Below, in pieces: positions 30,757-36,331 of a stretch of 49,917 nt of DNA. A program made the position numbers and the translations under genes. Origin of the DNA: an uncultured Alphaproteobacteria bacterium. Lineage in GTDB: Bacteria; Pseudomonadota; Alphaproteobacteria; CAAHEQ01; UBA3637. Location: contig CALXPF010000001.1 of the NCBI GenBank assembly GCA_944390205.1, positions 1-49,917 on the forward strand, written 5' to 3'. The number at the start of each line of letters is the position of its first letter. Positions within the stretch are counted from its first letter, which is position 1. The notes below the pieces were generated by a model, which was not told the DNA's origin, searched no databases, and was given only the letters and a program-made list of their open reading frames with translations.

Positions 30757-31380
30757 TTAATTTCTCTCCGATCTGAATTGAGTCATCTTTTTTTGTAATG
30801 CCGGATTGCTCTTTGTCTTTCCGAGCAATAAGTTAACAGCTTTAACATCCCCTCGCTCGGAAGCCATCATAAGAGCCGTTTTACCCTCATTGTCCTTAAG
30901 ATTTACATCAGCACCGGCTTTCAAAAGAATTTCTATGGAATCGGTGTATCCGTTAGATACGGCGTCCATTAAAGGCGTCACACCCCGTTTATCTTGCCGA
31001 TTCACATCAGCTCCATGCTCTATAATCGCTTGCACAACTTCGGCATCGTACATAAGAGCATACTCCAAAGCCGTCTTACCAAAGCAATCTACGGCTTTAA
31101 CATCCGCCCCTCGTTCCAACAACGCCGGAACATATTCCTTCACATGCTCACCGCGACGCAATGCCCACATCAACGGGGTCCGTGCTCCCTTATCCCGATA
31201 ATTAACATCCGCCCCTTTCTCAATTAAGTCATCAATCTTTTGAGTGGCAACCGCTCGTTTTTCCGGATGACCGGTCCACACAAACTCAAGCAATCGCTTG
31301 GAATATAAATCTACATATACTTCATACAAGCTTTTTTTTGCTTTATAATCGGGTTCGTTTAATGTTTCATGTTGTTTCAT
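30757..31380 (-). CDS. Ankyrin-repeat protein (about 4 repeats)
   Basis: Repeated 'G.TPLM.A...G....V..LLE.GADVN' units, e.g. 'GARTPLMWALRRGEH', 'GKTALEYALMYDAEVVQAIIEHGADVN', 'GVTPLMDAVSNGYTDSIEILLKAGADVN', 'GKTALMMASERGDVKAVNLLL'. Confidence 0.9.
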   Translation of the reverse strand: MKQHETLNEPDYKAKKSLYEVYVDLYSKRLLEFVWTGHPEKRAVATQKIDDLIEKGADVNYRDKGARTPLMWALRRGEHVKEYVPALLERGADVKAVDCFGKTALEYALMYDAEVVQAIIEHGADVNRQDKRGVTPLMDAVSNGYTDSIEILLKAGADVNLKDNEGKTALMMASERGDVKAVNLLLGKTKSNPALQKKMTQFRSERN

Positions 31381-31673: not shown

Positions 31674-33131
31674 TTATACCGAAATCAATCCGTGTGAAAA
31701 AGCGTAAAGAGCAACGAGAGCCGTCACAATAATAAAAATTGCCAAGGCTTTTTCGGGATCGGAAAAAATCGGCTCTTTCGGCGCATATTCTTTTCGGGCC
31801 AGAATATAGAACGGTATTCCGATTGCAATAAAGACAACAGCCATCAAAAGGTAGCTGAGGCCGGCTGCATAAATTAACCAAACGGCATAAACAGCCCCTA
31901 AAACAGCCGTCATCAAAGCGCTAAATCGACTAATTCCGATACGGGTCGGAAACTCATGATCCTCACAAATTTTCCAAAGATACAAGCACGACATAAAATA
32001 CGCCGGCAAAACCATCACACCCGTAATGGAGAGCATTGTATTCCATGCATTATTGGCAAAATAAACAAAGATCATGGCAATTTGCATTAAAATGCTGGTC
32101 GTCCAAAGAGAGACATTCGGAGATCCGGCCTTGTTCTCCCGTGCAAACACTTTCGGAAAGGATTGATTTTGAGCCATGGCAAAGGGCATTTCCGCAACAA
32201 TCATTGTCCAAGAAAGCCAACTGGCCAAAATAGCAATAATCACACCGACATTCATCAACCAAGCTCCCCAAGGACCGACAATATGTTCCAAAACACCGGC
32301 GGTTGACGGATTGGGAATAGCGGCGAGCTCTGCTCTTGTCATATATCCGAACGGCAAAATAGACAATAAAACATAAATGGCCAAACACCCTAAAAATCCG
32401 ATCAACGTGGCACGCCCGACATCCGACTGACTTTGTGCTCGTCCCGATAACACAACGGCGCCCTCAATACCGATAAAAGCCCATAATGTCACCAACATTG
32501 TGTTTTTCACCTGTGTTTCCAATCCGCCTAATTTATGTTCACTGAGTTTTCCCCAAAAATCAAAATCAAACTGATCCGTGTTAAAAACAGCGCCAACAAT
32601 AATAATGAATAAAACCAACGGAACAATTTTGGCAATCGTTACGACCAAGTTAATAAAAGCTGCTTGCTGAACGCCTCTTAAAACCAAAAAGTTGAAAAAC
32701 CAGATCAAAAAAGACCCACCGATAATGGAGTATAAATTATTTCCGCCCGTAAAAACACCCGGAAAAAAATAATTAAAAGCATCCATGGTAATAACGGCGT
32801 ATCCGACATTTCCGAAGATCTGACAAAGCCAATAACTCCATCCGATATTAAACCCCATGTAGGGGCCGAATCCGGAACGGGCATACATATAAATTCCCGA
32901 CGTTAAATCCGGTTTTGCATTTGATAAGATCCGAAACGTATTTGCAATAAAATACATTCCGAATCCCGTCACCAACCAAGCGATCATAACGGCTCCGGCG
33001 GCGGCACTTTGCGACATGTTTTGAGGCAGAGAAAAAATCCCGCCTCCGATCATTGAACTGACGACAATGGCGGCTAAACCGAATACACCCAATTTATCGC
33101 CCGTTGACATTTGCTTTTTTTGCTCTGCCAT
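31674..33131 (-). CDS. aaxC: APC-superfamily basic amino acid/amine antiporter (ArcD / chlamydial AaxC-like arginine:agmatine exchanger)
   Basis: 'KLGVFGLAAIVVSSMIGGGIFSLPQNMSQSAAAGAVMIAWLVTGFGM...KPDLTSGIYMYARSGFGPYMGFNIGWSYW' follows the ArcD/AaxC N-terminal pattern. ~13 TM segments. ATG 33131 has an AAAGGA SD. Lies directly downstream of the decarboxylase gene. Confidence 0.7.
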   Translation of the reverse strand: MAEQKKQMSTGDKLGVFGLAAIVVSSMIGGGIFSLPQNMSQSAAAGAVMIAWLVTGFGMYFIANTFRILSNAKPDLTSGIYMYARSGFGPYMGFNIGWSYWLCQIFGNVGYAVITMDAFNYFFPGVFTGGNNLYSIIGGSFLIWFFNFLVLRGVQQAAFINLVVTIAKIVPLVLFIIIVGAVFNTDQFDFDFWGKLSEHKLGGLETQVKNTMLVTLWAFIGIEGAVVLSGRAQSQSDVGRATLIGFLGCLAIYVLLSILPFGYMTRAELAAIPNPSTAGVLEHIVGPWGAWLMNVGVIIAILASWLSWTMIVAEMPFAMAQNQSFPKVFARENKAGSPNVSLWTTSILMQIAMIFVYFANNAWNTMLSITGVMVLPAYFMSCLYLWKICEDHEFPTRIGISRFSALMTAVLGAVYAVWLIYAAGLSYLLMAVVFIAIGIPFYILARKEYAPKEPIFSDPEKALAIFIIVTALVALYAFSHGLISV

Positions 33132-33158
33132 GTGATATCCTTTCTCTATAAAAGACAC

Positions 33159-33184
33159 AAAAAGGGAATCCAACCAGATTCCCC
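33159..33184 (-). terminator. Hairpin plus T-run between aaxB and aaxC (internal attenuator/partial terminator candidate)
   Basis: On the - strand: GGGGAATC-TGGTTG-GATTCCC followed by TTTTTGTG. Confidence 0.4.
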
Positions 33185-33198
33185 TTGCCTAACAGCCT

Positions 33199-33786
33199 CT
33201 ATTTTTTGGGAACGGCAACCGGAGCCGTTTCAAAATTCAAAAATCCAAGACACGTTAAAGAATATCCGAAGGCTTGTGTAATATTGACATAATTGTGATA
33301 AAATTGAAAATCACTGTGTTGTTTCACTCCTCGAATATCCAATTCATGATTAAGCGATTTAGTCAACCACATTTCGGCATGTGCTTTTGCAATATCATCA
33401 TCAATAAACGTATCAAAGAACTCTACATACTCAGCAGCCCAACCGCCAATGAACCGACCGGATTTATCTTCACCCCAGACAACACCGACACCGGTTGCGA
33501 TTGCTTTGTGATCTTGTTGCCGTGCTCCATGACCGGCCATAATTACCTCTAATACGGCTCCGTGTTTAAATTGATCTTGAACTTGTTCGACCGGAACAAT
33601 ATTTCCGAACAATTCCGGCGGTAAAACAGACGTATACGGAATTACGTTAAAATCTTGAATTTTCGCTTCCAATAACGCCGAGTCATAACAAAATGTTTCA
33701 AAGGGTTGAGGGGGAATACCGTCTTCCGACAAACCGGCTCCGCCCGTGTGAAACGCTAATGTGGGATATCTTGTTCCTACTTGCAT
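33199..33786 (-). CDS. aaxB: Pyruvoyl-dependent arginine decarboxylase, chlamydial AaxB type
   Basis: 195 aa. '[58 protein letters not shown]', with Thr52-Ser53 at the position of the AaxB self-cleavage site. '[10 protein letters not shown]', '[10 protein letters not shown]'. GGAGG SD 7 nt before ATG 33786; the longer ORF-track N-terminus is non-coding-like. Confidence 0.7.
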
Positions 33787-33941
33787 AATAAACCTCCATA
33801 AAATAAAATTGCACAATTGCAACCAATGGTTGATATAAAATAAAAATACACGCGTTTCAATATATCCTTTAGTTGAAACTCTCTTGATTCGGATCAAAAT
33901 TGATTTTATATCCACAATGCATATTGAAAGGGAGAAAAACA

Positions 33942-34283
33942 ATGAAACATTTATTACTATCCGGCACAATGGCCATCGGGATTATGATGGCAGGTTCGGT
34001 TTCAGCCTCGACCATGTCAACAAGCGGAACCGTCACCGCCACACAAAACGGTGTTTTGGAAATTAAACAAGGAGACGGTGAAGTCAAAACATTCTCCATC
34101 ACACCGGAGACACGCTATCGTCAAAAGAAGATGACAGAGAGCACACAAGCTTCCACCGAAAATGAAACACAAGATGACAGCTATTTTGAACCGATTGTCG
34201 AAGAAGACGAATGGGTTGAAGTATATTATACCCCCAACGGAGACACACTCGTTGTGGAAGATGTCATTATTTATGAAGATTAA
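33942..34283 (+). CDS. Small secreted protein of unknown function
   Basis: Signal peptide '[23 protein letters not shown]'. AAGGGAGAA SD. Acidic C-terminus. Followed by a terminator. Confidence 0.55.
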
Positions 34284-34513: not shown

Positions 34514-36331
34514 ATGCGTATATTTAACCGATTGATTCATTCATTTCACAAAGATCGTTTACAACCCGCTCGTGCCGAATCAGGCCGAACAATGGTTGAA
34601 ATGATCGGTGTCATCGGCTTGATCGGACTGATCAGTATTATCGGTATCGGTGGTTATAACTATGCCTTAAATTCATATCGGGCCAATACCCTTAAAACAG
34701 AAATTAATATGTATGCCGTTGATACGAGTATGCAACTCAAAAAACGAGGATCTAAGGTTTCCTCTCTTCAAGACTTACCGACACAAACCCGATCCGGATA
34801 TCCCATGACAATTCGAGATTCGGATAAATCAAGATTTTTTATTGTTGAAGTAGGATCGATTCGTCCAAGTGTCTGCTCTAAAATTTTTTCCACCGGTTGG
34901 CCTTTGGTGACGGCAATTTCGCTTAACGGGGCTCCCTTGACACAAGATCAAATCGAAAACGGGGCCAATATCGGTGATTTGTGTACGGATGAAAATGCCG
35001 TTGCTCTGGAATTTCATGTTTCATTAAAACCATGCGCCGGAGACAATTGTGAAATTTCTTCCGAAACGGGTGATGGAGGGACAACACCGGAAGAACCGGA
35101 CAATCCGGAAGAACCGCTTCCGGATGGGGAATGTCCGGAGGGACAAGTTTATTATGAAGGCGGATTAACGGCTAAATGCGTGGATGCATGCCCCGGAAAC
35201 AAAGTTATGGGATATGAGGGAAATTGTTATTCCTGTGACAATGTGGTTGTTGATTATGCCGAAAATATAGATTCTGTTTGTTCCAAATGCGGAATGAATT
35301 CATTTTATTCCGAAGAGATTGATTCATATATGTGTTGCCCGACTTCCGCAGGGAGCAATGAAGAAGTCAACCGTCTGTGCGGATATGGCGTGGAAGAAGA
35401 GGATGAACCATGCCCCGGAGAAAACGAGTATCGAGATCTCAACACGGGCGAGTGTGTCGAGGATTCTTGTCCGGCAGGAACGTTTGTGATTGATCGGAAT
35501 GGAACGTGTGCCCCCTGTCCAACCGAAGGCAATCCGATCTCGGATGCTATAAACTCCGATGTGCCGGACACCTGCCGAAAATGCTCAAACGCCGCATTAA
35601 CATCTTCAAATGATGTCGATTTGTGGATTAGCAATCAATTGTATTGCATGTATTGCCCCTCCCCCCGTGTCGTCTGTGGGACTCAGTGTTGTGCGGAAGG
35701 AGAAAAATGCCAAATCAACTTTACAGGCGATCCAATTAACTCGTGGTGGCAATATACATATTCTTGCGTCTCTCAAGGATGTCAGACAGATGCAGACTGT
35801 TCAGGGGATAAACCGAGATGTAATAAGGAAACGGGACAGTGTATGGGCTGTCTGACAAACGCTGATTGCAATAATGGATCAGAAACGGGAGATTATTTCT
35901 GCAACCTATATGGAACAAGGTCCACCCTTTTGAGCTATGGTACATGTGATCCGGCCACACCTACTCACGTTATATCTTCACCCAACGACTATTCCAGTGT
36001 TAACGATCAATCCTATACATATGTTATTTCAGGAAACCTTCTTACTTGGTGGGGTGGAGAAAACTTCTGCAAGGCTCACGGGATGAGTTTAGCGCCCATT
36101 TATGATTTTTGTGATGAAAACACCGAATATGGGAATACCGTTTCCACATCTTCATATGTTCCGGATGGCGATGGAAAACTTTTGACATGTTGGGAAACGG
36201 GAATTATACCTTTTTGTGCTGGTAATGGATGTAGAACCGGCACAAGGCGCGGCCAAGGCTCTAATTATGTAATCGGACAATATACTCAAGTCATACAACT
36301 TGCCGAACCCCATCCCGTTATCTGTCGATAA
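34514..36331 (+). CDS. Type-IV-pilin-like protein with a long C-terminal cysteine-rich repeat region and a C-type-lectin-like end module (putative adhesin)
   Basis: 'SG RTMVEMIGVIGLIGLISIIGIGGY' class-III-signal-like N-terminus. Residues ~23-185 are paralogous to ORF 9509..10027. Then an acidic/Pro linker, then ~38 Cys in CxxC / C..CP patterns. The end module runs 'YTYVISGNLLTWWGGENFCKAHGMSLAPIYDFC...PHPVICR'. AAGGGGA SD. Confidence 0.65.
   Translation: MRIFNRLIHSFHKDRLQPARAESGRTMVEMIGVIGLIGLISIIGIGGYNYALNSYRANTLKTEINMYAVDTSMQLKKRGSKVSSLQDLPTQTRSGYPMTIRDSDKSRFFIVEVGSIRPSVCSKIFSTGWPLVTAISLNGAPLTQDQIENGANIGDLCTDENAVALEFHVSLKPCAGDNCEISSETGDGGTTPEEPDNPEEPLPDGECPEGQVYYEGGLTAKCVDACPGNKVMGYEGNCYSCDNVVVDYAENIDSVCSKCGMNSFYSEEIDSYMCCPTSAGSNEEVNRLCGYGVEEEDEPCPGENEYRDLNTGECVEDSCPAGTFVIDRNGTCAPCPTEGNPISDAINSDVPDTCRKCSNAALTSSNDVDLWISNQLYCMYCPSPRVVCGTQCCAEGEKCQINFTGDPINSWWQYTYSCVSQGCQTDADCSGDKPRCNKETGQCMGCLTNADCNNGSETGDYFCNLYGTRSTLLSYGTCDPATPTHVISSPNDYSSVNDQSYTYVISGNLLTWWGGENFCKAHGMSLAPIYDFCDENTEYGNTVSTSSYVPDGDGKLLTCWETGIIPFCAGNGCRTGTRRGQGSNYVIGQYTQVIQLAEPHPVICR

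Follow-up and report, generated by a model that had tools for sequence, protein, structure and literature searches.

How should one understand a pair of adjacent genes that, in an uncultured gut alphaproteobacterium, look like aaxB and aaxC of Chlamydia: as a module brought in from another phylum without its porin, or as something that belongs to the lineage carrying it? The pair occupies positions 31,674 to 33,786 of a 49,917-nucleotide (nt) stretch of DNA (NCBI GenBank assembly GCA_944390205.1, contig CALXPF010000001.1, positions 1 to 49,917), which as a whole is called the window here and which is contig 1 of a 1.31-Mb metagenome-assembled genome (MAG; G000 in our numbering) that is 79% complete. 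A sequence-only reading of the locus had described a Chlamydia-type pyruvoyl arginine decarboxylase plus antiporter lacking the aaxA porin, plausibly acquired by inter-phylum transfer. Our analysis makes it very probable that these two genes form the decarboxylase-antiporter core of an AAX-type arginine:agmatine exchange system, long resident in a small-genome family of gut and rumen Alphaproteobacteria. The system to which it has to be compared is AaxABC of Chlamydia pneumoniae and the Chlamydiaceae, reportedly described by Giles and Graham in 2007 and by Smith and Graham in 2008, and treated further by Giles et al. in 2009 (PMC2720952). The elements of the core are the following.

33797-33793, reverse strand: Shine-Dalgarno sequence GGAGG, 6 nt before the aaxB ATG, read from the sequence.
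33786 (ATG) to 33199 (stop), reverse strand: aaxB, putative pyruvoyl-dependent arginine decarboxylase proenzyme, 195 amino acids (aa), identified by a PF01862 match and homology to C. trachomatis AaxB.
33131 (ATG) to 31674 (stop), reverse strand: aaxC, APC-superfamily (APA family) antiporter, 485 aa with about 12 transmembrane segments, identified by a TIGR00905 match and homology to C. trachomatis AaxC.

The start of aaxB was placed at ATG 33786, and not at the TTG of a longer open reading frame (ORF) of 256 aa, because the GGAGG sits 6 nt ahead of it. The product matches the Pfam family PF01862 (PvlArgDC) over residues 8-147 (85.3 bits, cut-off 22.7) and shares 71% identity with C. trachomatis AaxB across 159 aa, with one gap of a single residue, its residues 51-53 (Y-T-S) aligning with Thr52-Ser53 of the chlamydial protein, where the cleavage site of AaxB lies (PMC2720952). 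The near-collinearity with chlamydial AaxB, Thr52-Ser53 included, that had been noticed in the sequence is thus borne out. Throughout a 35-sequence alignment of the AaxB family (mean identity 79%), T52 and G114-G115 never vary and S53 occurs in 34 members, being missing from one chlamydial sequence with a 4-residue deletion; Gly115, whose replacement by Arg inactivates the serovar D enzyme (PMC2720952), is kept as Gly in the window protein. AaxB is therefore predicted to cut itself between Thr52 and Ser53, with Ser53 giving rise to the pyruvoyl group that would serve as cofactor. The exception in the alignment, a Chlamydia-type AaxB of 191 aa (L107:4001-4576, protein P0401), is without four residues including Ser53 (Y-T is followed by K-E-L) and is probably unable to form the pyruvoyl group, so that it may represent another independent inactivation of aaxB in a chlamydial lineage.

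At the level of structure, an AlphaFold model of AaxB built from the 35-sequence alignment was of moderate quality (mean predicted local distance difference test, pLDDT, 65.8), and a fold search with this model returned as its only significant PDB matches the PvlArgDC structures of Methanocaldococcus jannaschii, 2qqd and 1n2m (E 4e-6 to 2e-5, probability 1.00, TM score 0.5-0.64); a phmmer search of AaxB against PDB sequences gave nothing at E <= 1. The window protein and the M. jannaschii enzyme, PdaD, share the Pfam family, the fold (as far as the predicted model goes) and a serine at the cleavage site, whereas their sequence identity is only about 18%. PdaD is a biosynthetic enzyme of polyamine synthesis whose cleavage site is Ser-Ser, against Thr-Ser in AaxB, and to our knowledge it has no partner antiporter or porin. 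Other PvlArgDC proteins came up in the searches as well, among them three distant homologues of 387-479 aa with the decarboxylase domain at the C-terminus (P0133, P0136 and P0145) and a 141-aa PvlArgDC labelled Bilophila wadsworthia (P0347), which shares 67% identity with the first 100 aa of AaxB.

The transporter passes the cut-off of the TIGR00905 model for basic amino acid/polyamine antiporters (582 bits, cut-off 409) and aligns with C. trachomatis AaxC gap-free over 455 aa at 56% identity, in agreement with the earlier description of an ArcD/AaxC-like APC antiporter directly downstream of the decarboxylase gene. Tyr93, Trp202, Glu208 and Trp293 of AdiC, the arginine/agmatine antiporter of E. 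coli, correspond to Y100, W217, E223 and W308 of AaxC, all of them conserved, which is compatible with arginine/agmatine handling, even if these residues do not discriminate within the APA family. AaxC is nevertheless distant from AdiC (156 bits on the AdiC model NF007929, cut-off 574; 118 bits to AdiC of the PDB) and lies on the ArcD-like branch, not in the AdiC family. From sequence comparison we predict that it exchanges arginine for agmatine.

ArcD is in fact the closest curated transporter family by score, and we therefore considered whether AaxC is an ArcD-type arginine/ornithine antiporter, or whether the pair handles another substrate, for instance histidine and histamine. AaxC scores 533 bits on the ArcD model (TIGR03810) and reaches 470 bits with a model for histidine-histamine antiporters, and other gut bacteria have been found to carry 'aaxC-like' transporters beside pyruvoyl histidine decarboxylases (PMC8465708). 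Both scores, however, lie under the curated cut-offs (591 bits for ArcD), and in the AaxC tree the window protein groups with chlamydial AaxC (starred support, 100/100) to the exclusion of true ArcD, which forms a separate long-branch clade (also 100/100, starred). Furthermore, an ArcD-type antiporter would have no arginine deiminase (ADI) pathway to serve, because neither arginine deiminase nor carbamate kinase was found in the searches described below, and the adjacent enzyme is a PvlArgDC protein 71% identical to the AaxB family, which includes the arginine-decarboxylating C. pneumoniae member. We regard this alternative as very improbable and retain AaxC as the putative arginine:agmatine exchanger.

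The chlamydial system has a third component, the outer-membrane porin AaxA, and the sequence-only reading held that it was absent. This is right for the window, where profile searches gave no AaxA/OprB match, and wrong for the genome, since a homologue is encoded on another contig.

G000:C12:17611-18873 (contig 12): aaxA homologue, 420 aa with a signal-peptide-like N-terminus, identified by a Pfam OprB search and NCBIfam NF051888.

This protein is the sole match in the genome to the NF051888 model 'porin AaxA' (E 1.5e-85, 288 bits, model positions 86-438 of 440). With C. trachomatis AaxA it shares 34% identity over 375 aa, and in the AaxA tree it groups with the chlamydial protein (100/100, starred), apart from an alphaproteobacterial OprB paralogue. 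The order to which the window belongs was sampled as one family with 80 species and genomes of 0.7-2.0 Mb; the AaxA model matches 71 of these 80 genomes and none of 14 control genomes, two of which have OprB itself, and the two genera without AaxB (genomes 98-100% complete) are also without AaxA. Of 80 related loci (here and below, the best 80 related loci in species genomes), 29 have an orthologue of the contig-12 porin next to aaxBC, in several arrangements: just upstream on the same strand, giving exactly the chlamydial order aaxA-aaxB-aaxC (L002 and L078), 1-4 kb upstream, right after aaxC (for example L038, L041 and L048) or divergent (L072 and L079). The contiguous arrangement was not found here, aaxA being on a separate contig both in this genome and in its congener G001. 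The likeness to Chlamydiaceae AaxABC therefore extends to three homologous proteins, with a 195-aa AaxB, aaxB followed by aaxC and a porin of the OprB family, while the host organism and the variable position of aaxA differ.

Two further observations concern the porins. Some family members encode a further OprB porin, about 400 aa long (L131-L136, for example G068:C3:110593-111534); with 140-185 bits on the AaxA model and a clade of its own (100/100, starred), it is an AaxA paralogue within the same lineage. The gene directly after the contig-12 aaxA (G000:C12:18883-19809; L081:1915-2841) belongs to the lysylphosphatidylglycerol-synthase transmembrane-region family PF03706, a further envelope-charge function beside the porin.

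Considering the metabolic setting, profile searches with positive controls detected in G000 no agmatine deiminase (PF04371), agmatinase/arginase (PF00491), arginine deiminase (PF02274) or carbamate kinase (arcC), and the first three were likewise not found in five relatives whose genomes are 94-100% complete (controls again positive). Because no agmatine-catabolic genes were found, agmatine has no detected fate but export. In C. pneumoniae, AaxB decarboxylates arginine and the system takes up arginine and releases agmatine, with acid resistance and/or membrane potential as its benefit (PMC2720952). By homology, AaxB of the window would convert cytoplasmic L-arginine to agmatine with the consumption of one proton, AaxC would swap external arginine (+1) for internal agmatine (+2), and the AaxA-type OprB porin of contig 12 would pass the substrates through the outer membrane, so that the net outcome of each cycle would be the removal of a cytoplasmic proton and the export of a positive charge, contributing to acid resistance and/or proton-motive force. 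As proposed here, cytoplasmic arginine decarboxylation coupled to electrogenic arginine/agmatine antiport would be shared with the AdiA/AdiC system (AR3) of E. coli, although the decarboxylase is a small pyruvoyl enzyme in the one case and the pyridoxal phosphate-dependent AdiA in the other.

An alternative use of the enzyme would be to feed agmatine to polyamine biosynthesis like archaeal PdaD, the permease being a mere arginine importer. That archaeal PvlArgDC has this role is established, and the remoter bacterial PvlArgDC homologues (at most 58% identity) have no antiporter alongside. Against this, PF00491 and PF04371 were missing from G000 and from the five near-complete relatives, and the decarboxylase is tightly linked to a transporter of an exchanger family and co-occurs with a dedicated porin. 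A biosynthetic role thus appears quite unlikely, and arginine:agmatine exchange remains the reading that we prefer.

The two genes of the core lie on the same strand and are separated by a spacer of 67 nt, within which a scan for terminator-like structures found the following element.

33186-33161, reverse strand: intercistronic stem-loop with an 11-bp stem and a 4-nt loop, followed by a T-rich run.

Strong folding of this spacer is near-constant across 78 related loci although the spacer sequences are unrelated (median length 58 nt, median minimum free energy -17 kcal/mol, median z -3.7 relative to shuffled sequences). The alphaproteobacterial spacers measure 40-105 nt, in contrast to 9-15 nt in the chlamydiae. 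We infer that the hairpin is a leaky terminator or a stabiliser of the mRNA 3' end that favours AaxB over AaxC, so that it would probably raise the ratio of decarboxylase to transporter.

Is the system then an acquisition of this genome? The earlier proposal of an inter-phylum transfer was correct in that the relationship with the Chlamydiaceae is real, and the pair does lie, as had been said, in proteobacterial surroundings, among conserved proteobacterial genes of an alphaproteobacterial genome. All of the 120 best listed matches in a first homology search with AaxB were alphaproteobacterial, with at least 78% identity. The best 80 related loci, whose AaxB proteins are 77-97% identical to that of the window, are nearly all labelled uncultured Alphaproteobacteria (rumen, abomasum, colon, rabbit and human (Hadza) gut), the sources being rumen, gut and faecal metagenomes. 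Within the order, PvlArgDC (PF01862, with M. jannaschii as a positive control) is present in 69 of the 80 species genomes and 14 of the 16 genera; among 401 sampled genomes of the class, it is confined to five alphaproteobacterial families, the window's own and four others, all with genomes of 1.2-2.0 Mb. The gene directly downstream of aaxB is aaxC in 78 of the 80 related loci. Given this distribution over species and genera and this linkage, aaxBC is a long-resident trait of a small-genome lineage of uncultured gut and rumen Alphaproteobacteria and not a recent import; inheritance of the pair among proteobacterial genes, which the sequence-only reading had itself named beforehand as an outcome that would speak against transfer, is what the lineage-wide occurrence indicates. 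One related locus of a MAG labelled Rickettsiales (L080:5944-8356) has, in place of aaxC, genes for a 176-aa unknown protein and glyceraldehyde-3-phosphate dehydrogenase after aaxB.

Recent acquisition of aaxBC from Chlamydiae by this particular genome would account for the high identity to the chlamydial proteins (71% and 56%), the original description of the system comes from Chlamydiaceae (PMC2720952), and the GC content at third codon positions (GC3) of aaxC and aaxA is high, between the 95th and 98th percentiles of the genome (aaxC at the 95th). In all other respects a composition scan for recent horizontal transfer, a check that had been suggested along with the proposal, did not lend it support: bulk GC is ordinary over the locus, with no anomaly, the codon usage of aaxB is closer to the genome than that of the average gene (z +2.0), and the synonymous-codon fit of the module genes is within about 2 standard deviations of the genome mean, with that of aaxC and aaxA unremarkable or mildly atypical. 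Together with the occurrence of the module in most genera of the order and in four further families, and with the trees presented next, these data leave very little probability for a recent import into this genome.

With respect to the direction of transfer between the phyla, the literature holds that the ancestor of the Chlamydiaceae gained aaxABC horizontally from an unknown donor. Chlamydial sequences were reached with the N-terminal 100 aa of AaxB as query, which led to truncated C. trachomatis ORFs and their contigs. One such contig (L101) has an aaxB stop at codon 128, the position of the stop in serovar L2 aaxB (PMC2720952), and another C. trachomatis contig (L102:8001-8588) encodes an AaxB with Arg115, the inactivating state of serovar D (PMC2720952), and a stop at codon 160. 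A reciprocal search with C. trachomatis AaxB retrieved, in this order, Chlamydia AaxB (84-93% identity), two metagenomic proteins (78-79%) and hundreds of alphaproteobacterial proteins (73-76%); the contigs of the two metagenomic proteins show chlamydial synteny, with aro genes and DAO and Ldh neighbours. AaxB of the crown Chlamydiaceae carries one inserted residue near position 96, which both the window protein and a deep chlamydial contig (L103) lack; at this site L103 has the alphaproteobacterial-type state.

Sequence diversity is far greater among the alphaproteobacteria than within the chlamydial clade, which is monophyletic (100/100, starred). In the AaxB tree the ingroup is recovered (99, starred), with a polytomy at its base. 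The AaxC tree, rooted on true ArcD, places the chlamydial clade (100/97, starred) among the alphaproteobacterial families, and the AaxA tree, rooted on the alphaproteobacterial OprB paralogue, places it inside two starred alphaproteobacterial clades; the approximately unbiased (AU) test did not reject alphaproteobacterial monophyly for AaxC (p=0.13) and gave p=0.10 for AaxA. When the three proteins were concatenated (39 taxa, 1079 columns, composite outgroups), the chlamydial clade was nested as sister to the alphaproteobacterial family f19, together with f58, the alphaproteobacteria were monophyletic in none of 200 bootstrap trees and the AU test rejected their monophyly (p=0.0066). Removal of the long-branched f19 and L078 preserved the nesting, now with f58 (95/99, starred), and weakened the AU test to p=0.094. 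Attraction between the long chlamydial branch and the outgroup would favour a sister topology rather than the nesting. The trees thus place the chlamydial operon inside alphaproteobacterial diversity, opposite to the direction into this bacterium that the earlier proposal implied. Whether the small-genome gut Alphaproteobacteria, or close kin of theirs, were the donor lineage of the Chlamydiaceae aaxABC operon is a proposition on which our judgement is evenly divided, in view of the composite outgroups, the single history assumed for three genes, the unlabelled taxonomy of MAGs and possible exchange among alphaproteobacterial families.

Several points weigh against identifying the locus as an AAX system and must be set beside the evidence given above. 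AaxB reaches only about 30 bits on the NCBIfam equivalogs TIGR00286 and NF009064 (cut-offs 107 and 207), which are archaeal-type models; the position of chlamydial Trp128 is occupied by Phe, and by Phe or Tyr across the alphaproteobacteria; and the structural model is poor precisely at the cleavage loop (pLDDT < 50 over residues 27-67). The 288 bits of the contig-12 porin fall short of the 600-bit cut-off of NF051888, which is tuned to Chlamydiaceae, and aaxA is unlinked to aaxBC in this genome, whose completeness of 79% makes the gene absences lean partly on the relatives. Finally, for all alphaproteobacterial members we infer self-cleavage, substrate specificity, transport stoichiometry and physiological role from computational comparison only.

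The genes that surround the core within the window are listed next.

30757-31380, reverse strand: ankyrin-repeat protein, 207 aa, just downstream of aaxC.
33939-34283, forward strand: predicted secreted protein, 114 aa with a signal-peptide-like N-terminus, divergent from aaxB, taken from the ORF list.
34514-36331, forward strand: Cys-rich acidic protein, 605 aa, with an N-terminus like a prepilin/pseudopilin leader (G-R-T-M-V-E-M, then a hydrophobic helix).

The gene upstream of aaxB had been described as that of a divergent small secreted protein, and the 114-aa product with its signal-peptide-like N-terminus corresponds to this description. Of the 80 related loci, 22 encode a homologue (26-39% identity; 81% in the congener locus L001) in this divergent position immediately ahead of aaxB, and the protein may be functionally tied to the module. 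The 605-aa protein is 95% identical in L001, with weak partial matches only in other relatives. Neither protein belongs to a Pfam or NCBIfam family, and a Pfam search at E <= 5 was also empty for these two upstream secreted proteins. Genes for ankyrin-repeat proteins occur near aaxC in L001, L018, L028 and L053 as well; such a neighbour, unusual for free-living bacteria, hints at interaction with a eukaryotic host.

Full-text searches of the literature found no paper on aaxABC in gut Alphaproteobacteria, and what is new here is the contig-12 porin, the pattern of AaxA/AaxB co-loss, the metabolic absences, the hairpin survey and the test of direction by the concatenated tree. The AAX system has so far been regarded as a special feature of pathogenic Chlamydiaceae, of unknown source, whereas all three aax genes are near-universal in widespread uncultured gut and rumen Alphaproteobacteria with genomes of 1-2 Mb. 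This would give the system an ecological home in bacteria that face gastric, abomasal or fermentative acidity without other arginine pathways, and it suggests a microbial origin for agmatine in the gut. If the direction suggested by the trees is true, these bacteria would also be candidate donors of a trait that, in chlamydiae, has been implicated in host interaction.

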